Assembly (NCBI GenBank): GCA_973895155.1 | Contig: OZ316898.1 | Span: 1,401,927 to 1,465,926, forward strand | DNA length: 64,000 nt | Reading direction: 5' to 3' | Origin: Marsupella aquatica | Lineage: Eukaryota > Plantae > Marchantiophyta | Shown here: in pieces, positions 40,186 through 64,000 of the stretch | How the letters are laid out: each line of letters starts with the position of its first letter | Numbering within the stretch: position 1 is the first letter of the stretch | The notes under the pieces: generated by a model | What the model saw: the letters and a program-made list of their open reading frames with translations, nothing else | Told to the model about the DNA's origin: nothing | Databases searched by the model: none | Made by a program: the position numbers and the translations under genes

Positions 40186-40808
40186 ATGGGTGGGTTTCTC
40201 TTTCATTCCCAAAACACAAGAAAAGTAGTTCATCTCATTGACTTTCATTCGTGTGGCTTCTTTCTTTTCTTTCATCAATTGTCTTTATGCTCTACACAAC
40301 ACCCCTAAACTAAGCTTGAACCTTTTGCATGGTAATCCAATACTGATCCTTTTGGATATAGTAGGGCGTCTCAAAGTAGGGGACGGCCAAAAAGTTACGG
40401 GAACTGTCTGGGTCCCGTAACTCAAGTTACGGGACAAAATAAAGGCCACAACTTGCGATGGGGTTTCAGCTTTGACCCGAACCGTTAGGCATGACTTACG
40501 GGTTACAGCCCGCTCAAAGTTGAGCGCCCATTCTTTCCCTCGCCCATCACAGATCGTCAGGGGCCTCGTGGAGATGCCACATCAACTACATGTTTAGAGC
40601 GTATGCCTTGAATCCATCCGATGCTCACTACTCCTCATCCAGAACAGTAAGGAGTTCAAATCAAAATTTGAAAGGATTCAAACTCCTGCGTCGTTTATAA
40701 TTCATGAAACCTGAAATTTAGCACTTCTCAGTTGAAGAAATTTATGTCTTCATCGTTGCGCATCCAAGATAAGCAGAGCACACATTCAATTTGGAATTCA
40801 TATTGACA

Positions 40809-42450
40809 ATGAGGACTTCAGACAGCCATGTTGCTCCAACATATAAGAGCGTAAACGACGACTGTGTTCTCCCACAATCTCACAACTCTTCGAAGGCATT
40901 GGCAATCTCACTTGAAATTTTTTATGATTATCAGTCTGAGTTTCCAAGTGCTGAAGTGAATTTGCCAAGGCCCGATCAATTGCAGCAAGCTAACATGGCT
41001 AATTCAGGAAGTGCAGGATTTGTTAGGGGCAGAGGAAGTTTCAATCCTCCACGACCTGTACCAAGCGGAGGGAAGGAGACAGCTGACAAGTTCCGTTTGA
41101 AAGATCAAGACTATGAGTTGATTGTTAGCTATTTGGAAGTGCCAGAAAATTTCAACGCCATTCATGGTGCAGGGAAGAAGACGAGGGTGGGTGGCAAGTA
41201 CCAGAGCAAAGCTACTGTCTTCCGCCAGATGTTGGCTGCACTGCAGCACCATGGATTTCCCAAAGAAATCAGCGCCCCAAATTTGACTAAACGATTTCAG
41301 CGTTTTGTCAAGCGTTACAAAGATGCTAGGGATGTTAAGTACCAGTCTGGTGGAGGTCTCACCGATGACGATTTGAGAATCGGTTTGACATTGGAGGACA
41401 AGCTGAATCGGCTATGCCCATACTTTGAACGAATGCATACGATCTACGGAGAGAGACCCAATGTTGCCCCAAAAGTCCTTGGAGATGTTGGAGTCGAAGA
41501 TAGTGACCTTGTCATGCTTGAAGAGTCGGGAGACACCGAGCAATACTTGCAGTTTGGTGAGGAAAACCACTATCCGAATGTCATCCCACAACATTCCCCA
41601 ACTATTATCCTCGAAGGTATTTAACTCGATCTTTAGCTTGAACCTGTCATGTTGGGTGCAAGGCTATGATGTCATAAGCTTTGTTTGCAACGAGTAGAGA
41701 CGAATAGTAACCAGATTATTCTCTGATTTTGTTCATGCAGATACACCAGCGCACTCCGAAGCTGAATCTCTCCATACGACTCCCCTGGAGGCACCCACGC
41801 CCGACACCCTGAACAAGCCACCGTCCACAGACAACTTTTGGCAACAAATGGAGAACATTGCTGCGCATAACATCCACATCCTTTCTGATTCATGTCAGTG
41901 TCACCAGTGCAAGACCTACGTGAGGCCTGAGACTGGAGATAGTCGACACCTCCCCACTGGTAGTGCAACTGGAGCCTACACCCCCTTGCAGCCTCGCAAG
42001 GACAATGTGCAACCCACCCCACCGAGACCACCACCACCTAGGGCGTCAAAATCAGGATCGCAAGCAGCAAAAGATGGGCAGCAAAATAGGAAGCCATCTT
42101 TCTCAGCTATTTATGCTGACAGGATAAATCAGAAAGCTGATTATCGAAAGGAGCTAATTCAGTCAAGGGACAAGTGGAAAATGCACGGCCTTGAAGAGCG
42201 TCGTGCTGCTAGATTGGAGGCTCGTCAGGAAGCTCTGGTGAAGCACCGCCTGGACCGAAAGCATCAACTTGCTTTAGAGGAACTTGCTCATCAGAATTCG
42301 CTCAAGAAAGTGAAAGCTGAGCAAGAGCATGCAAAGGAGATGCTAAGAGCTACTCAGCGATAGGCTTTGCTCACTACTCTTATTGGCAGCTCCAAGACCC
42401 CAGAGGAGCTCAAGACATTGCTGCCCATTGTTGACGTAGAGTACAAGTAG
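40809..42450 (+). CDS. Harbinger accessory (Myb/SANT-like DNA-binding) ORF, two exons, probable premature stop at 42361
   Basis: ORF 40791..41624 (LKDQDYELIVSYLEVPENFNAIHGAGKKT...KLNRLCPYFERMHTIYGERPNV) splices via GT 41617 / AG 41740 in frame to ORF 41848..42363 (coiled-coil). The frame continues past TAG 42361 to a second stop near 42450. The start could be ATG 40809 or 40995. Confidence 0.75.
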
Positions 42451-43114
42451 TAGATTTCAGATAGCAAAGATTTGTTCTGAGATTGTTACCTATCTGGTTC
42501 CTATCAATATGTAACATTGGCCATTACTGAAATACAAGTAAATTATGTCGAACTCAGAGTCAATCAAACTTCCACATTTAATCCTACTTATTGTATGCTG
42601 CAAGAACTCTTTCACACATTTCAGTGTATAGAATTACATGGCGTTTATGAACTTTCCTTAAGTCCACAAGTTGATGAACACATTTGAAGTCCACCGAAAT
42701 AAATTTAGATCCAAAATCCGGGCCAAAATCACTACAGACTCAAATGGCGCCTTCGCACTTCTACTTGCAACAATGCAGTTGAACACTCTATGCCTAAAGC
42801 CGTATGACGTACTGCAAATCCTCAAATTCAGTTTATTGCTCTTTGGCTCCGAGTTCACGTTGGTGCTAGAACAAAGTTGAACCCTACCATGTTGTACTGA
42901 GGGTTGTAGCAATCGACAATTACCAAACGACAACAAAGTCTTTGGAAACCAACACTCAAAAAATGTGAGTGCTTCAAATTAATGATTAATGTTTATGGGT
43001 CTCCCCAATTACAAATAGAACAGTCATCAAAGATGACGTTTTGACTGTACCTTGTCATTGGCTATGCACTAAACTAACCATATGAAGCGTGACTACTTCC
43101 ATGCTATGGTGGAC

Positions 43115-44601
43115 TTAGCTTGTACGCACATTCAAACAACCACCCGGTTGCTTATGAAATCTCATGGCATATTCCATGACATGGTTTTGCAACATCAACC
43201 AAGATGCTTGACGATTCCTTCTTGGATTTGTTGGCAAGTTACGATGCTCCTCCTGTTCCGCATCACTGTCTGAGTCATGGTCCAGAAGGATTTCTGAATC
43301 CTCTTCAGTCCACAAGTCATTACGTCCAATGACGTAATTGTGCAATCTTGCACACATGATAATCCATCTAATTATCCACTCAATCTCCTTCTTAGACCTC
43401 AATTGGGTACGCATCTCTCTCAGGGAATGCCACCTTGACTTCAAAACACCAATGCAATGCTCATTAGTTACCCTACACTTTGCGATACACATGTTGAAGT
43501 CCTCCCGCTCCTGGCTTGTGTCAGCCCTCTTGTATGCAGACACCATGTGATCCATGGGCTCATATCCACTGTCACCCAACAAATACTGCCCACGACTAAA
43601 CAAATGGCCGTCATTTTGGTTTCGGCATAGTGATGATCTCTTGTAACAGGTGAGATCAGAGACAGACCCTGGCAATCCTGGAAAACACCAAACCAAAAGT
43701 CTGTGAATATAATAATTGGAATATGTAGGATCAAAGATATAAATAGATATAACAGTGCCATTCAAGAAAAATGGATTTATGGAGTCAGTTCATACCAGTG
43801 AATAAGTACAGGATTTTTCGCTTGTAGTCACACACGACCTGGGCATTGATTGAATATCTACACTTTCTATCAAAATAACACTCCCCAGATTGTGCTGGGC
43901 GCTGAGAGAGAGGAATCAAAGTGCCATCAATAAGCCCTACACATCCTGGAAAACCTTTCTTGGAAAACTCATGAGCAATTACTCTGCGCTCAGCCATTTC
44001 TGGCCATTTCAAGTAACCCTTCAATGCATCCTCCAGGGCTCGAATTGCATAGTGAGCCATTAGTTACGCCCCAGGTTGGAATTAAACGATTCAGGCAGGA
44101 TCCATTGCCTTCGTGGCCCAAACGATCCAAGGTAACAGCAAGTTGGCACTCTATAGGAGCCTGTTCGTTCTGTGAGTTGCTATAGAAAACAGGGTGTTGG
44201 TCAATTTGGTGAACCAATGCAAAGAAAGAAGCTTTGTCCATCCGAGTCATCTGCCGAAAAATCAGAGGAGGGAGCTTGTCAAAATACTGTAAAGCAAACT
44301 CTCTTGATTTACTTGTTATTGTCTTGTCAGCAAAAAACCTGGTGCTCTCCATCATGGCATATAACTCCATCAGCCCATGTGGAGCACCCTCCAATTCAAG
44401 TATGTCAGTCTCATCTTCTGAATCGTCTGATGAGTACAAATCATCCTCCGAATCAGAATTACACAGTGTCAGGTCGTCCAACGACTCCACTTCGCTACCT
44501 GATGTGTCAAGGCCATCATCCAAACTTTCTAGAAGGATGTTCAACACCAGCTTATCCCGCACAACCTGCAATTCCTTTTGACGGTATGATAGTCGAGGCA
44601 T
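43115..44601 (-). pseudogene. Harbinger/HARBI1-type DDE transposase, frameshifted
   Basis: Acidic N-terminus, then FRQMTRMDKASF...QLAVTLDRLGHEGNG, a frameshift near 44050, then GFPGCVGLIDGTLIP, YSINAQVVCD, an intron (43795-43678), LPGSVSD, YLLGDSGY, RVTNEHCIGVLKSRWHSL and CARLHN. The D-D-E triad is present. Confidence 0.9.
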
Positions 44602-44918
44602 GTCGTCCCTGCACTGAGTTATTGGAATGACAGGTTCTGTGATGAACACTAGAGAAAGGTCAGATGATGTTAGAGGAATTCATAACAATGCTACAAAATT
44701 GAACTTCCCATGATAATTGAAATTCAAAAGCCTTTTGAAGCAAATACGTTCACATGGGAGGAAGTCGTCACAAACTTTATACAACTTTGTTGTTGCCAAT
44801 TAAAAAAAACCTGGCAACAACTATTTATTACATAAGACATCATTGACGAGATTGCCTGTGGTATGGACACTTGGTTTAGCCACGCACAAGTATAAAAAAT
44901 GAACACATACAAGTTCGC

Positions 44919-50829: not shown

Positions 50830-52022
50830 TGCCTGGTTTGGACTTGCCCGGCAAATAGAGCCTTTAGAGGCCGTCAACCGGCAAGTCGGCACCCGGACCG
50901 TCCCGGTCTCCATATCCCGGCCCGGCCCGGCCCGGCCATGACCTACCAGCCCAGCCATGATCTCCCGGCCCCGGCCCGAGTTCCCCCCCTGGCCCGTCCC
51001 CCCGGTCCCAGGTCCGGCCCCATCCCCCGGTCCCGGCCCCGGCCCCGGCCTCCCCCATCTTTCACTCCCCCGGTCCCAGTCCCGGCCTCCCCTGTCTTTC
51101 ACTCCCCCAGTCCCGGCCCCGGCCCCCAGCCCCCGGTCTCCCCTATTAATAGGCCCCGGCCCGGCAGGGAGGAGGGGGAGCCCGGGAGGGGAAGGAGGCA
51201 GTTCGGGAGGAGGGGAGGGGGGGGGAGAAGGTGGGGGGGGTTCGGGAGGAGGGGAAGGGAGGGGGAGGGGGGAAGAAAGGGGGTTCGGGAGGAGGGGAGG
51301 GGAGGGGGAGGAGGCGGGAGCAAGGGAGGAGGGGGGGGAGTGGGGGGGGGGGGGGAGGGGGTTCGGGAGGAGAGGAGCGGGAGGAGAGGAGCGGGAGGAG
51401 AGGAGTGGGTGAGCTCGGGAGGGGAGGAGGTCGGGCCGGCCTGTGGGGAAAAATCAGATCAGGAAAAACACTCCAAACATACACGTGCTCAATAGTTACG
51501 TGGTTCGCCTCAAGGTTGGCTACGTCCACGGGAAGACCAAGCTTTATTAACGGTTATGTGTCTACTCAAGCATCACCATAGCTCTCATCTCTTCAAACTC
51601 TCATCTCTTGCTATATCAGTGTGTTCTCTCTTGAGAACTCTCTTGTGTGTTCTCACACCACATAGAAGTTGAAGAGATAAGGACCAACTCTTCAACTAGG
51701 GTTTACTCTAACCCTAGTTAACATACTAACCATAGTTCAACCCAAGACTGAGTTAACCTCTACACGGCCGGGAGGAGGGCCGGGCCGGGCAGGCAGGGAG
51801 GGAGGGGAGGAGGCCGGGCCGGGCCGGGTCCGGGTGAGGGGGGGGGGCGGGCCGGGTGCCGGGAGGGGAAGGGCGGCAGCGTCCGAGAGGAGGCCGGGAA
51901 GAGTTCAGGCCGGGCCGGGGAATAAGTGCAAATATGCGTCAAATAGAGGCTTTTTAGTCCGGCAAATGCCGAGTTTACGTGCCCGGCAACTCGGCAAGTT
52001 GCCCGTCAGTTCAAACCGGGTT
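50830..52022. mobile_element. GC-rich non-autonomous fold-back/TIR element
   Basis: Imperfect TIRs GCCTGGTTTGGACTTGCCCGGCAA and TTGCCCGTCAGTTCAAACCGGG. C-rich left arm and G-rich right arm. It interrupts one copy of a local duplication (50520-50700 versus 50720-50829 plus 52023-52090). The flanks are AT-rich (TTTATAT on both sides), so the exact target duplication is ambiguous. Confidence 0.7.
51442..51764. mobile_element. Solo LTR (323 bp) nested in the GC-rich element
   Basis: Starts TGT and ends ACA, with an exact 5-bp direct repeat CGGCC on both sides. Composition changes sharply against the G-rich host sequence. Confidence 0.82.
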
Positions 52023-55000
52023 TATATGGTTACAATCTAGAGGCTTCACTCTAGACCCTAGCCCTTGCAAGTAGCTTATGTTTGCCATTTATTAGTAAGA
52101 TGAGTTATGGAAACTTCTTACTGTCTAGGATGCCATTGAATTGGACTTGGAATCTATTCTATTAGTCCACTTGATGATGTGGTGGGCTTTATTGCTCCAA
52201 GGTAGAAAGGAGAGGAAAATGCAGCTGAGAGCGGGAAACTGAACCCTGATGCTACACATCCTGTTTCCTCGTGTGACCCTAGGTGGAATGGGCGATCTAG
52301 GCAATCTGTAACTATATAAGCAAGAAGAGAGAAGCTAGGCTAGGGTTTATGGTCTAGAGCTCCTTTAGACCATGACTCTTGCTAGGGAGGGGCAGAAACT
52401 TATCATCCATGGGGGTGAGAAATGAAATGAGTGTCCGTTTGTTCTCACGAATTATATGACATCCAAACGTCCAAATGGTGGGCATTAGCTAGTATCAATC
52501 AAAAGGGATGGTGGGAGAAGAAGTACAAAGTTTCATTCAGCCAGTAATACTTATAATACACGCGAAGGTTATGTAGAAAAAGGGCCAAACAAACAAAGTA
52601 CATTGAGTAAAGAGCAAAAGCCAGAGACACTTGGTGTCATTTTTGATACGTTAAACTCCTGTACATAGAATCTTGTTATTGAACGGAGATGAGGGAAAGA
52701 GATATGTGATGGCTCTGTTATAAAGTTCCTCTCATAGACTGTGTCACTATGGCTACCAGCCATTGATTCCACCACCATTTGGCACTTTTTTTTTGATTTA
52801 TTTGTTTAAATACTGGGCGCTGTTCTATGGCAACACATCCTACCAAATTTGATGGCCTTTGTTCCACAGCACACCCACACTCCACATGCAAAGCGTCTCT
52901 TGCTTACTAGATACCAGATGTAGTCAATTTGCTTCTATGACTACACATGAGGCCAATGCTACTCGGTGGCTCACGTTGTACCAGCCAGATCATACCAACT
53001 ATATATATATATCATACTAAATCATACTTCCAAGCCTTACAACCTTCTCTCCTTTAGAATCACCTCCTGGAATTATGTTGTACTGTCTACCAGAAAGGCG
53101 TCACAACGTACAACTCATGACTTACGTGATCATGTTAGAATCTTTGATTTGGGTGCCTTACCTTTAGGCAACAACCTCCTACCTGCTCTAAGAAAAAATA
53201 TACAAAGAATATATACACAACTATAGAACAAAAAGCCCCAAGTTTGGAGAAAAGAGACCCAATAAAGGGGAGAACAGAAGGGGAAACCCCAGGCAGTGTT
53301 TTTTTGGTGATCTGACTTGTACTGCAAAATAAGAGTATAGGATTTTTAACTTATGAGTAGAAGCACATTGACTGTCCCCTGTGTACCTCATGTCAAATAT
53401 CAGCCGTTAGATCTTTGTATGATTGAGTCTGGGCTGTTAGATCTTGGAAATCTTTACCCATGGATATTTTCCAGGAAGAGTGCTTGTAGGCAAAGAGAGA
53501 AGACGCCAGAACACTAAATTATTTATTCAGGCATATTATTCCCTTCAATTAAAAAATCTGTACTCTGTATAATTCACAACGTCCTTTCTTGGCTGTTCTT
53601 GGGCAATTTCTTGCTGATACAACGGAGAATGTTGTTATGCTGCATTGGTGCTTTTCTTTTTTGGGAAAACTTAGGGAAACCAAAATCAGAAACCAAATCC
53701 TGTGCAACTAGGGCAGGACATGCAGTGTTGTGTTCACTAGTTTGAATACGCTTGTGTATGTACAACAATGGCTGCCTCCCAATACTAGGCTCCCCATACT
53801 AGACTCTCCATGCCAGTCTATACTACAAACATGATCTAAATTGACTCCCCATGCGAGTCTAAATTGACGGGATAAATGTTGATGGCTCCACTCTACTGAG
53901 TAGGTTTTGAAACGTAGTGTTTGATCCCAAATAGTAGTGTAGATAGATCGATTCTATGGGGAGACCAAATTATAGTATAGATAAAATAGATAGATAGATT
54001 CTATTGTGAGAGGAGCACCACATTAGGGAGGGTTGAGGACAATGAAAGTAAGCAAAACGATTCACGCTTGATGATTCCACGGGAAGGCGTCCAACAGAGG
54101 CTCGATGGGGCACACAGTCTGTTTTGCATCCTACATAGTCGTTCCCACAAGGGAATAAAGGAGCTGACGTTAAGAAGGCGCAACTAGAATCAAGATGACG
54201 TCCTAGCGTCCGAGTATGGACAAGTCTTGGCACGTCAAAGAATCAGGCACTTTGGGATATCATTCCCTTTCTAAAACAAAAGGAGAATCTCAGAAACCAC
54301 CAAAAAGAAAGACAATATTCTCATTCTTACCTTTCGGTTGTGGTCCCTAGCAAGCCTCAGTGTCCAATCAAAATACTCCCAAAGATTCACCACCAAGGGC
54401 AGTCCCCTTTCTTTTTTTCAGTTTCCTTGGCTGTCAATCCTTGCCGCTACTTGATATTTGGTCAGGTTATTGTCTCAGTTTCATGTCCAGGTACATTGAT
54501 CACAATCTTGTACTGAGTCCTAAATAGAAATGACTCGACTAGGAAGCACCCGTGACTCCTTGTGAAGCCCCTACGGGCAAGGGCACTAGTCCATTAGTAG
54601 GTGTCCCACCTAGCCACGGACCCAATTAGCCAGCATCTAACAATCACCCTTAAATCTTGGGAGATCTAATGATCAAGGAAAAATTCAGGAAAACATGTCT
54701 CTTCTCTTTCACACAGGCTGACATTTGCCACACTGGCAAACAAAAACAAACAAACCTCAAAGATCAAGCTGAATAACACCCTGCCAAGAGGGTTTTCTGG
54801 CGTATAATAGCTTGAGGGTGATTCTATGAGCTCTCACAATTTTTGGTGAGGAAAAATGTGGGGGTTATCGATAGGGACCTCCCCAAAAACTGCATAGCGA
54901 AAAAGAGCTGAGAGAGGGTCACGTGGCGGTGACGAGACTGTAGGTTTTGGGAAGCTACAAGAACATTCTGTCGATTATTTTGTCCATTTTCAATTACAGG

Positions 55001-56449: not shown

Positions 56450-57717
56450 GTTACTGCTGTATGATTGGATTGGATGGTATGACCTAATAGGCAGCAATAA
56501 TTGAGTTGCCCAGGGATGCCCATCCAACATCTTACTAGTAAGTCGCAATTGAAACTTAGTGTTTGAGGCTATGGTCTAGACTGAAGCCTCTAGATTGCGA
56601 CTCTTGGGGCATAACCAAAAATTGGAGTGGGGATAGAAACTGACAAGGGGGCGGTGGGGTGAGTATGGAGTGTTTAAAGATTAAATGCAACTTTGTGAAT
56701 GGCGAACAGGTTGGTATTGACATTCAAACCAGGATATGGAGGAGTAGCTGGTCCTAGGGAGCTGGCTATGGAGCTGCTTGATGGAATTGGCAACCTGAGG
56801 AATGCATGGGAGATGCACTATTTTGTCCTCGCCTCTACTCCAAAATTCAAAGAACAGGTATTTGGGCTAGAGTCCATTACTGCAAGCAATCCACGCTCAC
56901 TCCATAAGGTGTAGACAATGCACTGACGGTGAAGACATGAGGGTGTACGTCCTCACATTTTCAAATGCTACCTAAGGCGTGTGGATCCACATAAACATAG
57001 AGTTTGGTTGTCTGAGCAAGAATAACCCAGCGGTAGTAGTCTTCATTGCAACAAGTGAGATTCCAAAATTCAAGTTTCATAAGTTGACCCTCGGGGGCCT
57101 CAATCCAAGGGGTGTCTCATATCACGCGCGAAGTTTTGAGGGAATAAGCACCCTAAAAGTTAAGTCAATAAAGTTTTTTTTAGGAAATGTTTTATCCCTA
57201 ATTTAATGGAATATTCCAAGAATATTTCCAAGTTTGATTTAAAAAACCCTATGATTCTTATAATTCTTAAAATTAGATTAAAATAACTCTAATGTTGTTC
57301 AACAAAAATTTAAAAATATTTCACTAAACCCAATAAAAAAACCCTATACTTATTCGTGCGTGATGGGTCGGAAGAAAAGAAATGAGGACCCTGGGAGTTG
57401 ACCAGCCTCTACACAAATCCCCATCCCAAAGTGAGATTCACCAAAGCCCTTGCCCACAGAACCCTTGAAGGTTAGAAAACTTGGAGTTCATTTTTTTTAT
57501 CACCTAACTGGAACCAGTATGTGGACAAATGTAAGAGTAACCGCCCTTGCCATGTGACACACAACAAGCTAGGAATGACCTTGGGTTAAGTATAGGAGAC
57601 AGAGTAACCTATGTACAAAATTGTTTGGGGGACAGATTGAGAATATGGGTCAGTTTGGGACACAGGGTAATAACAAACGGTTAGATTGAAATGACTAGAT
57701 GGAGAGCAAGAGCAACT

Positions 57718-58025
57718 TGTTGAAAGCTAGACTACTGTGATCTGCTCTGCAAATGAGGAAACAGTAAAGAACTAAATAGGGCCAGAAGAAGGAGGCGAAG
57801 GCAAGCCAGCACCGGAAGCAGGCCCGAGGTCTAACAACCAGGAGACAGCCGTTAGCACAGCACATGTCGTCAGAGGGACAACGGAACACAGCACCAGGTG
57901 AGGTAACAACTCTCCGTTAGCACAGCACATGTCGTCAGAGGGACAACGGAACACAGCACCAGGTGAGGTAACAACTCTCTGACTCGTAACCAAGTGGAAC
58001 CTGTGAGAGTACACAAGTTCCAACA
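57718..58025 (-). repeat. 3' LTR of copia element (308 bp), containing a 65-bp tandem duplication
   Basis: Near-identical to 63162-63468; abuts the PPT; duplicated unit at 57849-57913 and 57914-57978. Confidence 0.95.
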
Positions 58026-58034
58026 CCCCCTCTT
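58026..58034 (-). promoter_or_regulatory. Polypurine tract
   Basis: The minus strand reads AAGAGGGGG immediately before the 3' LTR. Confidence 0.85.
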
Positions 58035-58086
58035 GAGGAAGAGAGAGGGAAGATGAACCAGAACAGCAGAAGCGCACGCAGAAGCG

Positions 58087-58695
58087 ATGGAGCCGGGACG
58101 ACGACGAGAGCTGAAGCACACGATGGTCAGGGGACTAGCTGTAGTAGTGGAAATGTTGGGATTATGTTTCCAAGTGTGTCATAGTATTTGCATCGGTGTG
58201 GCACAGTGGTTGCGACAAGAGGAGAAACCAGAGAATAAGGACAACCGGAGCTCCCCGGAGCCGCAAAGAGTGAAGACAGTGAAGAACAACAGTGAAAGTG
58301 CCTCCTCTGAAGCAAGAATCCAGCCGGGAGTGTCCACATATGTCACACCAGGTCAAGCGACGGCGGAGGTGAGGGAAGTGGAGAGCATCACGCAATTGAC
58401 GCAGCATGAAATGCGAATTCCCGGAGAAGTGAATCAGCAGCAGTCATGGCGCAGGAGTAGTGAACATCGATTGCAGATCAGGGGAGCAGTAATGTTGAAG
58501 AAGTATTATGCAGTAGCAATAGGACGGGTACCGGGGATATATAGATCGTGGGCAGAGGCGGATAAGCAGGTGACAGGGTACTCAGGGAATTGTCACGAGT
58601 CGTTTAGGACCTTGGCAGAGGCGAAGCAATTTATGTCCGTGTATCATCCAAGGACAGGAGAGGTAGAGGTAGAACAATTGTATGTGGTGAGGTAG
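58087..58695 (+). CDS. Antisense extra ORF of the copia element with a C-terminal RNase H1 N-terminal hybrid-binding domain (Cauli_VI/viroplasmin)
   Basis: 202-aa ATG-to-TAG ORF. KKYYAVAIGRVPGIYRSWAEADKQVTGYSGNCHESFRTLAEAKQFM matches the HBD signature (YAV..GR..GIY.SW.E...QV.G......F....EA..F). Hydrophobic N-terminal segment; AATAAA at 58761. Confidence 0.85.
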   Translation: MEPGRRRELKHTMVRGLAVVVEMLGLCFQVCHSICIGVAQWLRQEEKPENKDNRSSPEPQRVKTVKNNSESASSEARIQPGVSTYVTPGQATAEVREVESITQLTQHEMRIPGEVNQQQSWRRSSEHRLQIRGAVMLKKYYAVAIGRVPGIYRSWAEADKQVTGYSGNCHESFRTLAEAKQFMSVYHPRTGEVEVEQLYVVR

Positions 58696-58827
58696 GAGAC
58701 GAGATAGAGATGGAGAAGAGATTATGTGGCGGCAGATATTTGTGTAACCGAGTTGACTCCAATAAAGGATTTGTGTTTTTCCAACTTGAGTCGCCCGAGA
58801 GGTTTCGTGAATAAATCAGCCGGGTTT

Positions 58828-61800
58828 TCAGAAGAATGAACATATGCGAGGGATATTCCCCCCCTCTAGCACCCGCTCACGAATAAAGTGGTGCTTGCCC
58901 TCGATGTGCTTGGTGCGAGCATGAAAGACTGGATTTTTAGCAAGCTTAATGGAGCCTTGATTATCGCAGTGCAAATGGAGATCGAGAGAGGAAGGGGAAG
59001 AGGCCAGTGAGAGGTCCGAGTGAATAGAAGCACCAGAAAAGGTAAGAGGCACCTGAAGAGGGGAGGTAATGTGAAGCTCGTTAAGTAAGCGGCGGATGTA
59101 GACCCCTTCCTTTGCGCCTTCAGAAAGAGCTTTATATTCTGCTTCAGTGGTGCTATCGGACACGGTGGGTTGCTGTTTGCTGGACCAAGAAATGGGTCCG
59201 GAAGCAAGCTGAAAGCAGTAGGCGCCGATAGAGCGGCGAGTCTCAGGGCAGCCTAGAAAATGAGCGTCGGTGTAGCCTGCAAGGGAAATTCCAGGTGAGC
59301 GTGAGTAGTAAATGCCATGATCGGTGGTATGGCTGAGGTAGCGTAGAATGTGTTTGACAGAGTCCCAATGTCGTTGTTGAGGCCTGGTCATGTAGCGACT
59401 AACGATGCCAACAGCATAGGCAATGTCAGGACGGATGTGAGTGAGGAAAATGAGTTTCCCAACAGCATGGCAATAGTCGGTGATGTCCACAGGAGGTGTG
59501 TTGGTCTCAAAAGTGAGAACATGCCCTTCTGGTAGGGGAATGAACTCAGGTTTAGAATTGACTAAACCAAATTCGCAGACCAGCTTCTGGCAATAGGAAT
59601 GTTGATGAAGAAGAAGTCCGTCATCAGTGCGAAGAAATTCGATGCCTAAGTACTTCTGCACTGGTCCGAGATCTTTCATTTTGTATTGTTGGTGGAGTTG
59701 GTCTTTGACGGCGGCAATTTTGTGAGAGTCTTTTCCTGTCACCAGGAGATCATCAACATAAATCATGATAATGACAATAGAGGTACCTTCGCAGAGAAAG
59801 TAGAGATTGTTGTCCGCCATGCTCCGGGTCCAGCCATTGCGCTGAAGGTAAGCATCGATCTCTTCATACCAGGCCCGTGGAGACTGTTTGAGCCCGTATA
59901 GGGACCGCTTCAGACAGCAAACCAAGTGTTCAAGTCCAGGGACTTCAAAGCCACGAGGTTGTTGCATGTACAATTCTTCAAAGATGGTGCCGTTGAGAAA
60001 AGCTGTTATAACATCCATGTGATGCAGTTCCCATCCAAGAGCCACAGCCAGAGCAATGATAGTGCGAAGAGTGGACCATTTGACCACAGGGGCAAATGTC
60101 TCATAATAGTCAATGCCGTATTTTTGCTCAAGACCACGAGCCACCAGGCGTGCCTTCAAGCGGAATCGGGTAGGATTCAGATCCGGTTTCGACCGGAAGA
60201 TCCATTTAGCAGACAGGGCTCGTTTGCCGACAGGAAGAGGAACAAGCTCCCAGGTACCCATGGGCATGAGAGCCTCAAACTCTTCTTGCATGGCTTCACG
60301 CCACAGGGGTGGCGGAGAGCTTCAATCTCAGAGATTTTGTCTGATTCAGGTTCGGCTGATTCAACGAGAAAGGTGTCCATGTGGTCAGGCCTCCAGCTCA
60401 TGTCATAGTCTTGATGCCAAGGTGGGGGACGCTTTACACGTTGGGAGTGTCGAGCAGCATGAATTGGAGCCGGAATCTGCGGAGATCTAGTGAGAGAAGA
60501 GTTAGCCGTAGGGCAGGCCAAAGTCTCAGTGTCCTCGCCAGGGGGTGTCACATATTCAATATTGCCGTCAGCAGTTGAAGGGTTGTCGACTGCAGTTGCC
60601 CCCTCTTGGGCCGATGGACCAAACTTAGGATCAGTAAGCAACGGAAAGAAGAGACTGGTGACAGCTTCTTGATTTGAAGAGAAGTCGTAAAAGGAACCTT
60701 CAATGATGTTGACGTTGGAGGCAATAAGGACACGTTTACAAATGGGGTCAAAGCACCAATATGCTTTGGACTGTGCGTCGTAGCCGAGTAAAACAGTGCG
60801 TATTGCTTTAGCGCCCAGCTTGGAGCGCAGATGCGGAGGAAGAAGAACGTAGGTAAGACTGCCAAAGATCCGAAGGTGATCCAAGTGTGGTTTCTGACCC
60901 CAAAGAGCTTCGAAGGGGGTCATCAATTTGAGAGCCCGAGCGCCACATCGATTCTGGGTGTAGTTGGCTGTGGCAACTGCTTCTGTCCAAAGATTGATTG
61001 GCACGTTGGAGCTGAGAAGAAGACTACGGGCACCTTCCAAGAGAGTATGGTTTTTGCGCTCAGCCACACCATTTTGATGAGGAGTGCGAGCAACGGTGAG
61101 TTGACGACGGATCCCGTGTTGTCGGCAGAAAGTGAGGAATTCGGAGGAAAGGTACTCGCCACCCCGGTCGGAACGTAAGCAAGAGATTTTCATGGACAAC
61201 TGCTTTTCAATGAGTAACTTGAATTCCTGAAACTTAGAGAAGGTTTCACTTTTGTGAGAGAGAAAGTATACCCAAGTGAAACGTGAAAAATCGTCAATGA
61301 AAGTGAGGATATATCGGTGTGAAGTGGAGGCAGGAAGGGGACCAAAGAGGTCAGAATGAATCAACTCCAGTGGTCGGGAGGCATGGGTTGCAGATGATTT
61401 TGGAACTCGATCGCGGTGGTGTTTGGCCACAATACAAGTCTCACAAGAGCGTTGAACTCATGGGATGGAAGGTAGTCCATGAGCCAAGTTATGATGTGAC
61501 ATATGATGGAGCATCTGAACATTGACATGGTGGAGTCGTTTGTGCCAGAGGTCAATGTCGTCCTCCATGGGAGACGATTCAGCAAGAAGCATTGGTGCCG
61601 GCTGAGCGAGAGAGTGTGGTCAAAGACGAGTGGTGGTGCAGAGAGGAGAAATTGAGGGAAGAGATTGTGGAAGCCGATACAGGTGATTCCTGGGATCTCG
61701 GGTGCCCCGTAGGAAGATCTTCTGAGGGTTATCCTTGTCAAAGACGAGACACGAGTGAGAATTGAAGAAGACATTGTGGCCAGCGTCAGTGAGATTGCCA

Positions 61801-62981
61801 ATGGACATGAGATTTCGTGTCATACCCGAGACGTACAAAACATTGCGGACGGTTTTATTGGGAGCAATATGGACTGAACCGCTTCCAACAACAGGGAGTT
61901 TAGTGCCACTGGCGGTGGCAACGGAGCCGGCACCACTGGAGTGATGCATGCCACCAGAGAAAACAGATTTGTCTCCAAAGACGTGAGTACTAGCGCCTGA
62001 ATCTAAAATCCAATCATTTGTGCTAGTGCTAGGGAGGATCTCAGTGAAATTGGCCTCCAAATCTGCACCGGAGTCGTCGTTCTCATCGGCCGGGTCAGCT
62101 TCTTCTTCTTCATCATACGGAGCTTCGACTTCATGAAATATTTCAGCTACATTGGCCTGAGGACGAAAACGTCGGAGACTGGCAGCTCGAACTTGAAGTT
62201 GCAAGATTTGTTCGTCGACCTTTTTGAGGTCACAGTCAGATTCCCAGTGCCCAGACTTGCCACAATAGTTACAGGAGGTAGGGCGTCGCATGCCGCGTCC
62301 ACCGGTTGCACGCGGATAAGAGTTGACCCGAGGAGGATAGCTGACAGCAAGTCTGGGGGTGAAACGGCCTCTTCCACGCCCTGAGGATAGATTTAACCGA
62401 GACACAAATAGGGCCTCCTCGGTAGGCTCAGAACGTGACTGAATATTGAGCTTCTAGAGCTCTTCGGCCTGCATACGCTCCAGCAGGCTGTTGTACGAAG
62501 GTCGTGGTGTACGGGCAAGGTCAGCGGAGAAGATGGAGACAAAGGTTCCCCAACTCGCAGGTAGTCCACGGAGCACAAGGTGAATGAGCTTGTTGTCATC
62601 GACGACAGCATCCATGCTGGCCAGTAGCTTCTCTTCCAGTATCAGTCTGCGTTGATATAGGTCGCCACCGAATCGTTGTTGGAAATGTGCCCAACATTGA
62701 GCTGGGTCATCAGAGTACTTATCTACAGTGGGCAAGAACTGAGCTTTCACTGTAGCGGCAAGAATAGAGGTGGCCCTCACTTTCTTCTTTGCGATCTCAC
62801 TTTCAGTCAGGTGTGCCCCACCATCTTGAACTTGACCATTGGCATCTGGCTTGACGCCAAAGTTCATTTCCGTGAACAGATCGTCACGCTTCAGGAGATT
62901 CTTCACAAAGATGGTCCATGCTAAATGATTGCTGGCTCCTTCCAGCTTATCTACCTCAGTAAACATCTTCATCATATCCAT
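58828..62981 (-). pseudogene. Copia gag-pol polyprotein, disrupted by several stops/frameshifts
   Basis: Gag (62454-62981, ends in TAG); zinc knuckle CNYCGKSGHWESDC and protease WILDSGASTH (61620-62405); pre-integrase WHKRLHH followed by an in-frame TGA; integrase LELIHSDLFGP...RSDRGGEY...QNGVAER (60177-61430); RT (RLKARLVARG, LYGLKQSPRAW, IYVDD) and RNase H (WSSKQQ, EAEY, CDNQ, HARTKHI) in 58828-60291. The pieces lie in different frames. Confidence 0.93.
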
Positions 62982-63149
62982 GGTCGGATGACAGAGAATG
63001 TCGCAACAGTATTAACCACGAGGAACTTTCACTCAGGACTGTACTGTGACTATTCTAATGCAGGAGTAAGATGCCAAGGAACTTTCGACCTGGGTTACTA
63101 GCCTGTAGCTTGCACTAATTTCTCATCTAGAGAGTGCGTAGAGACTTGC

Positions 63150-63161
63150 GCTCTGATACCA
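63150..63161 (-). promoter_or_regulatory. Primer-binding site complementary to tRNA-iMet
   Basis: The minus strand reads TGGTATCAGAGC immediately after the 5' LTR. Confidence 0.92.
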
Positions 63162-63468
63162 TGTTGAAAGCTAGACTACTGTGATCTGCTCTGCAAATGA
63201 GGAAACAGTAAGAACTAAATAGGGCCAGAAGAAGGAGGCGAAGGCAAGCCAGCACCGGAAGCAGGCCCGAGGTCTAACAACCAGGAGACAGCCGTTAGCA
63301 CAGCACATGTCGTCAGAGGGACAACGGAACACAGCACCAGGTGAGGTAACAACTCTCTGTTAGCACAGCACATGTCGTCAGAGGGACAACGGAACACGGC
63401 ACCAGGTGAGGTAACAACTCTCTGACTCGTAACCAAGTGGAACCTGTGAGAGTACACAAGTTCCAACA
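63162..63468 (-). repeat. 5' LTR of copia element (307 bp)
   Basis: TGTTGAAAG...TTCCAACA on the plus strand; abuts the PBS; about 3 differences from the other LTR. Confidence 0.95.
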
Positions 63469-64000
63469 CAACTCTGCTGGAGAATAATTGGCATGACTGC
63501 CACATGGAATTCAAACCATATCACAAGCGTATATTTTACTTCTCCAGACTGGTTCATTCTTTCTCCAAACGATCAGGTCGATAACTAGAATCAGGAGAGC
63601 CACGTAGATTGCAGAACCTCTCTTTGTTGTTTAGTGTACGGGAAGCGATAGGTTTGATACAAGGAGGTCTAGTAGGTCCACACAGATTTGTTGCTTAGTG
63701 CACATGAATGGGCACCTTTCAAGGGGGGCTTTGGATCTAGCACAAACAATTGTGACTCCACTTCCATTTTGCCTAGGACTTGTAAACTATGTCTCCTATG
63801 CATGACTGGATCACAGGTGGAAATCGCTTTTTGGACATTGATAACTATGACTCGTCTCAAGCCTAGAAGTGCCACGTGCACTTGAGAACGTCCATCTTCG
63901 CAGAGACGGGGATTGATCTCTTCGAATTCGATCAGATTGTCCCTCCTTTATTGGGTCTCTTGCCTCTAGGATCCTGTCTTCTAGTTTGGCGCTTTTGACC

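Follow-up and report, generated by a model that had tools for sequence, protein, structure and literature searches.

A putative antisense accessory gene for a hybrid-binding domain protein in a copia retrotransposon lineage, found in the liverwort Marsupella aquatica

The window analysed here, a stretch of 64,000 nucleotides from the liverwort Marsupella aquatica, carries on its minus strand a Ty1/copia LTR retrotransposon (57718-63468), an assignment on which structural marks and domain order agree. A Pfam search gave the order gag-PR-IN-RT-RH with RVT_2. The two LTRs, both with TG...CA ends, measure 308 nt (3' LTR, 57718-58025) and 307 nt (5' LTR, 63162-63468) and differ from each other by two substitutions and one 1-nt gap, and the flanks match as target-site duplications of CAACT (57713-57717 and 63469-63473). 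Gag, zinc knuckle, protease and integrase occupy 60306-62981, the RT and RNase H of pol 58860-60305, and the C-terminal tail of the RNase H 58722-58859, all on the minus strand. Reading the sequence on the same strand, we located a polypurine tract adjoining the 3' LTR (58026-58034) and a primer-binding site (63150-63161), which we take to be of the full tRNA-Met 3'-end type. Both LTRs contain a 65-nt tandem duplication (57849-57979 and 63294-63424), one unit of which is skipped by contigs in two of the runs used below; these contigs may reflect an LTR variant with a single unit or a collapse in assembly. A TAAATA at 57773 in the 3' LTR is a bare motif only.

The element is young yet broken. 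Its gag-pol, which aligns with single-frame polyproteins, contains three in-frame stops in the gag-to-integrase part (62456, 61622 and 61460) and is broken in frame twice, near 60306 and near 58860. The second of these breaks belongs to the window copy, since at that point the copies common in runs X2-X4 have another length. Past it, the RNase H tail of pol is shifted in frame relative to the remainder and is read to a stop at 58722-58724.

In a tree of 43 RT rows (the window element and 42 rows chosen from the 120 matches listed) the element sits in a 15-row clade together with copies from Calypogeia fissa (support 99/97), and these liverwort copies, at 53-55% identity, are also its closest named RT relatives among the matches listed. 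The primer-binding site argues against membership in the Bryco lineage of REXdb, since Bryco is described with a half tRNA-Met site (PMC6317226) and the site here would be of the full type. At about 58950-59060 (minus strand) the RT-RH of the element and its close clade is some 25 residues longer than in relatives of 45-48% identity (476 residues align with about 475 in the close clade and with about 450 in those relatives), a difference in the RNase H region that may mark the clade and whose position is approximate.

Between pol and the 3' LTR, on the opposite strand to the element (plus strand of the window), lies an ORF of 202 aa (58087-58695). Its ATG is found 62 nt from the LTR edge at 58025, and the placement given for it in the preliminary description was borne out to the nucleotide. 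A second in-frame ATG follows at 58123, and the stops of the ORF and of pol are 26 nt apart, the two genes converging. When the 696-nt gap between pol and the LTR was shuffled by base, an ATG ORF of at least 202 codons appeared in 13 of 5000 shuffles. We rejected the idea that the ORF is the shadow of a gene on the other strand, each minus frame having 4-6 stops, and also an identity as an env-like ORF. At 58053, 34 nt ahead of the ORF, an ATG in another frame begins an upstream ORF of 43 codons (58053-58184, plus strand) that overlaps the start of the main one; translation would be lowered or tuned by it if the transcript begins in the LTR.

Three parts can be distinguished along the protein: an N-terminal helix predicted by AlphaFold2 (aa 3-45, 58093-58221), a polar linker that is disordered in the model and fast-evolving in the comparison of copies (58222-58500), and a C-terminal hybrid-binding domain (HBD; PF01693 Cauli_VI, aa 139-182, 58501-58632). 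The Pfam search proposed for the last of these matched the whole model (1-44 of 44, E 8.3e-19) and found no other Pfam family in the ORF. An RNase H catalytic domain is absent by both Pfam and NCBIfam: the NCBIfam RNase H model is matched over positions 4-49 of 211 only, and the ORF stops 20 aa past the HBD. The stand-alone domain lacking its catalytic partner, as originally described, was thus recovered.

Two other observations stood as such and failed as arguments. The ORF had been said to be followed by AATAAA, and such motifs do exist at 58761, 58810 and 58882; they fall within pol, on the strand opposite to its codons (the first two in the RNase H tail), and being the reverse of coding sequence they are no independent sign of polyadenylation, so we rejected them as evidence of a poly(A) site. 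Likewise, the ORF is uninterrupted while gag-pol is damaged. With five lesions in the 4260 nt of gag-pol, a 609-nt ORF would stay intact at that density with P=0.49, and for this reason its intactness in the window copy is uninformative and was rejected as evidence of selection.

For the comparison of related copies we used contigs of four public runs, from two organisms and two studies (the kind of run being unrecorded), one of them possibly from the same source as the window. Four sequence groups of contig pieces hold the ORF or its HBD, so that the ORF is not unique to this copy. In near-identical copies (group a) there are eight differences within the ORF, six non-synonymous and two synonymous, a pattern that would be expected from drift after insertion. 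In a subfamily of about 88% identity (group b), both ATGs (58087 and 58123) are unchanged, and the single indel of the ORF, of 9 nt, is in frame, the frame being open across the 30 letters shown past the gap. Codons 1-52 of this subfamily carry 8 synonymous and 10 non-synonymous changes, equivalent to a dN/dS of 0.31-0.42 with a one-sided p of 0.03-0.08 that varies with the transition bias assumed, a borderline value from only 18 differences; 18 is also the number of ORF differences listed for the subfamily, those near contig ends being left out of the list. A 43-nt stretch in the helix core is identical between groups. Counting nucleotides, the subfamily differs from the window at 34 of 229 positions in the linker, whereas the HBD segment differs at 12 of 167 (Fisher p 0.025) and a pol segment at 11 of 220. 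These counts come from subtraction between the tables of X2 and X4, which were assumed to hold the same subfamily. The linker appears to diverge about twice as fast as the HBD and looks close to neutral.

A more distant family, of about 80% identity (group c), is represented by a contig of 1416 nt (run X3, record 20) with the HBD and pol in the same order and on the same strands as in the window, spaced by 214 nt against 232 nt. Its HBD is 81% identical (25 differences in 131 nt), and its pol pieces 80% and 81% (42 differences in 206 nt and 40 in 213), while helix and linker fall under the 80% match cut-off. The list allowed four of these 25 differences in the HBD to be assigned, and three of the four are synonymous. 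The last group (d) matches at the HBD (58566-58635), and its loose ends, read by eye, give I-Y-G-S-W-A-D-A in frame and a tail that stays open. In the conservation analysis that had been suggested, dN/dS included, the frame is kept, the HBD is as conserved as pol, and the dN/dS stays borderline. At three joints, related families match the polypurine tract and pol/RNase H and do not match across the ORF at 80% (from 58041, 58042 and 58045 to 59357, 58743 and 58860, respectively), and in these families the ORF may have been lost, replaced or far diverged. As a negative control, the HBD profile was run on 80 distant copia loci outside the close clade (32-49% RT-RH identity), 52 of them with at least 400 nt past the RT-RH match and nine further loci ending near the match being unlisted, and was found in none of the 80, from which we take the gene to be restricted to a lineage. 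Taken over the near-identical, 88% and 80% groups of contig pieces, in all of which it is kept, the antisense HBD gene is a real, conserved and lineage-restricted component of copia elements, and very probably a selected accessory gene, in line with the proposal of an accessory ORF made for it earlier.

Homologues beyond these families were sought in several collections. Searched without a filter, a collection of 1.84 billion representatives yielded 2698 matches, and all of the 150 listed were centred on the HBD. The two best single-domain scores among 152 HBD proteins belonged to P0067 (156 aa) and P0106 (163 aa), which have PF01693 alone, at the C-terminus, and are also the top two of 25 matches with a comparable N-terminal part. 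Their identity to the ORF is 28-30%, that between the two is 44%, and the N-terminal motif E-x-L-G-x-x-F-x6-C-x3-A-x-W is common to all three proteins. In shuffle tests, the score of the whole part preceding the HBD was reached in 4 of 5000 (P0067) and 38 of 5000 (P0106) trials, and that of the first 45 residues, a segment picked after the alignment had been seen, in 0 of 5000 and 8 of 5000. Both proteins come from short contigs and may sit in copia elements. In the two homologue clusters, the near-identical members P0274, P0275 and P0276 are set apart by substitutions that include T>M, R>C, R>H and G>R, one of them at an HBD glycine that is invariant otherwise; this fits decaying methylated repeats and gives an indirect hint of transposon origin.

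A whole-ORF homologue search yielded two HBD-only matches among 132 candidates, and residues 1-135 alone matched none of 23 candidates at E<=10. For the ORF in metagenome contigs there were 232 pattern matches, none confirmed. An RT alignment found no locus in viral contigs, and the ORF alignment found two in them, each a complete RNase H1-like gene of the ordinary kind in which the match is confined to the HBD. The best ESM Atlas cluster consisted of small Cauli_VI-only basidiomycete proteins (0.91, a lead only), and nothing was found there with PF01693 left out. Small Cauli_VI-only proteins lacking an RNase H domain are common in fungi (ESM Atlas clusters; P0149, P0024).

The AlphaFold2 model of the protein has one confident helix (aa 3-45, with pLDDT about 85-97 over aa 11-40), followed by a disordered linker and by an HBD modelled with low confidence; the mean pLDDT of the whole model is 51. 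The N-terminus, noted at the outset as a hydrophobic, Cys-containing stretch, is indeed hydrophobic enough in the window copy to resemble a membrane helix (Kyte-Doolittle peak 1.9, with a 20-aa uncharged run); a membrane anchor is made less likely by S33R in the 88% subfamily and by charges within the stretch in the homologues, in which uncharged runs reach only 10 and 13. The conserved residues L24, G25, F28, C35 and A39 lie on one face of the helix, which looks like an amphipathic packing or surface-binding helix and not a membrane-spanning one. Foldseek found no match in PDB at E<=0.001, human and yeast HBD coming first at E about 1. In a viral library the best match was caulimovirus P6 (E 1.6e-4, 210 columns) and P6 proteins led the list, a fold match made with a low-confidence model (mean pLDDT 51) at an rmsd of 28 A and mostly driven by the HBD.

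Within the HBD, the sequence aligns gap-free to the yeast (1QHK) and human (3BSU) domains, W155 corresponding to human W43 and E171/S172 to human K59/K60. These are the residues changed in the standard non-binding mutant, W43A/K59A/K60A (PMC6868509), and HBD is reported to prefer hybrids 25-30-fold over dsRNA (PMC8266564). In sets of related domains biased toward the query, the K59 column is K or R in 82% and E in 3% of 360 domains, and the K60 column is S in 27% of 358. Both P0067 and P0106 have Q at the K59 column, and no difference is listed at the E171 codon in groups a, b and d. Most residues of the core are preserved, and the net charge of +2 is the median value for the family. Because Glu replaces human K59, hybrid binding by this HBD is in doubt; it is plausible, not safe, and nucleic-acid binding may be weak or changed.

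Extra antisense ORFs between pol and the 3' LTR are a known class (aORF-3R or eORF-3'R), with no function assigned in the accounts given of them (PMC7264820, PMC11963269). Examples described there are gene23 of maize Grande, rice RIRE2, the TRP28 ORFs of Retand, PvRetro13 and Boty of Botrytis. Like these, the ORF described here is antisense, located between pol and the 3' LTR, kept across a family and a candidate for an accessory role; it differs from them in its domain, an HBD where the class has TRP28, SMC, PMD or DUF domains, and in sitting in a compact copia element, with about 700 nt from the pol stop to the LTR against 2.9-6.6 kb reported in Retand. REXdb counts extra ORFs only at >=250 codons and names the sense ORF of SIRE as the copia case (PMC6317226), a cut-off that hides genes of this kind. 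We found no HBD among the REXdb eORF domains, as given in its table of domains occurring in at least five elements and in those of its supplements that were searched. The env-like ORF of SIRE (copia eORF-3'F) likewise lies between pol and the 3' LTR and has a hydrophobic stretch. However, it is a sense ORF (PMC6317226), whereas the one found here is antisense, bears an HBD and has an apparently amphipathic helix. A description of an HBD ORF in an LTR retrotransposon was not found in the literature searched, most subscription journals and Repbase being outside it.

The closest functional parallel comes from the caulimoviruses. In CaMV P6 the HBD (dsR) spans aa 138-184 (PMC7102451). It is preceded by a variable region and, at the N-terminus, by a domain for P6-P6 interaction, and the protein holds replication factories together (PMC5902531). 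P6/TAV and the ORF would both be accessory proteins of reverse-transcribing elements with a non-catalytic HBD, at nearly the same position (138-184 in P6, 139-182 in the ORF), and in both the order is an interaction region or helix (predicted in the ORF), a variable region and the HBD. The likeness has its limits: P6/TAV proteins are 420-531 aa long (full-length rows of the viral Foldseek list) against 202 aa, the C-terminal RNA-binding, zinc-finger and eIF3-binding parts of P6 are missing from the ORF, which is moreover antisense, and sequence homology was seen over the HBD only. With eukaryotic RNase H1 the ORF has the HBD in common, including the W43 equivalent, and differs in having no catalytic domain, a C-terminal HBD and E/S in place of K59/K60. 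A PF01693 ORF on a mobile element has been described before, capE of the Helitron helpo1.3 of Pleurotus ostreatus (PMC4289320); the carrier is a DNA transposon, one large copy is reported, the ORF is read as a captured fragment, and that account gives no retroelement context.

Our preferred reading, to which we give a probability of roughly 0.4, is that the antisense protein acts as an accessory scaffold gathering or guarding the RNA and hybrids of its own element. The ORF would be transcribed, probably from the 3' LTR side; the helix would provide self-association or docking on a surface, and the HBD would hold RNA duplexes or RNA:DNA intermediates of the element. Replication intermediates might in this way be concentrated and protected, as they are by caulimovirus P6 in replication factories, if the helix oligomerises and the domain still binds nucleic acid. 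Counting against a scaffold is the fact that reverse transcription occurs inside particles, to which a protein on the outside has limited access. Another possibility is that the HBD fold serves as a protein-binding module that recruits TOR or ribosomal proteins, raising translation of the element RNA or damping autophagy of its particles. The same domain of P6 binds TOR, eL18 and eL13 (PMC5902531), and the K59 column is non-basic in the ORF and its two homologues (E, Q, Q) while the fold residues are kept. We nevertheless regard this as somewhat doubtful, given that W155 and most core residues are preserved with a net charge (+2) at the family median, that the eIF3-, eL24- and RISP-binding parts of P6 lie outside the domain (PMC5902531) with nothing similar in the 202-aa protein, and that reinitiation is not obviously needed by a gag-pol resembling single-frame polyproteins. 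The protein might also coat dsRNA of the element and hide it from Dicer-like enzymes, a role in silencing suppression that the preliminary description had put forward by analogy with P6. The P6 domain binds dsRNA in vitro (PMC5902531), and with genes converging 26 nt apart the transcripts would be expected to overlap and pair. The analogy is nonetheless weakened by the report that P6 suppresses RNAi without needing its HBD, the activity residing in a C-terminal part absent here (PMC5902531); together with the preference of HBD for hybrids over dsRNA (PMC8266564) and the acidic residue at the K59 column of the ORF, this makes suppression improbable.

A role in self-restraint, in which antisense RNA, protein or both would limit copying of the element, for example by holding hybrids or R-loops at the locus, has some points in its favour: antisense transcripts of LTR elements have been proposed as a restraint (PMC7264820), R-loops can be stabilised by a hybrid binder that has lost its catalytic activity (PMC6868509), and the layout is convergent, with 64% purine in the plus strand over the ORF. 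Yet the amino-acid conservation of helix and HBD calls for a protein function and not for RNA alone; we consider it quite improbable. Gene capture by mobile elements is common, and the ORF could on that account be a passenger without function, a captured fragment of a host RNase H1 or a caulimovirus P6. The uninformative intactness (P 0.49), the ratio of 6 non-synonymous to 2 synonymous changes in near-identical copies and the Pleurotus Helitron with its PF01693 ORF (PMC4289320) are all compatible with a passenger. Against it, the HBD evolves as slowly as pol across the 80% and 88% families and the linker about twice as fast, the frame is kept, and the N-terminal motif survives at 29% overall identity, which leaves a passenger very improbable.

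Beyond the scaffold reading, it is conceivable, if unlikely, that the protein is a miniature viroplasmin of a bryophyte copia lineage, the antisense equivalent of the first 185 residues of P6, which would build replication foci and would have been swapped between Caulimoviridae and Pseudoviridae or have evolved twice. If true, this would give an LTR retrotransposon an accessory protein with a defined nucleic-acid-binding job and provide a model for the origin of P6. For some 25 years antisense ORFs have been recognised in LTR retrotransposons of plants, and none has been given a function, largely because the encoded proteins look like nothing that can be tested (PMC7264820). The HBD found here is a domain of 44 residues whose structure has been solved, whose binding residues are known and for which assays are established. 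It makes the question of the antisense ORFs directly testable, and it would extend the HBD as an accessory module from caulimovirus P6 to a second family of reverse-transcribing elements.

Elsewhere in the window, an intron-rich gene for a RelA/SpoT homologue, with HD_4 and RelA_SpoT exons as in land plants, lies on the minus strand at 3233-23813; like the Calypogeia relatives of the RT, it fits a liverwort or other bryophyte host. Pieces of a DDE_Tnp_4 transposase (E 7e-20, minus strand) face a broken pair of plus-strand ORFs with no Pfam match at 40773-44679, a layout that we presume to be that of a PIF/Harbinger-type transposon. A very G/C-rich low-complexity block with imperfect inverted arms is found at 50893-51874, and an inverted pair of 31 nt (94%) at 52033-52063 and 56567-56597, 4.5 kb apart.
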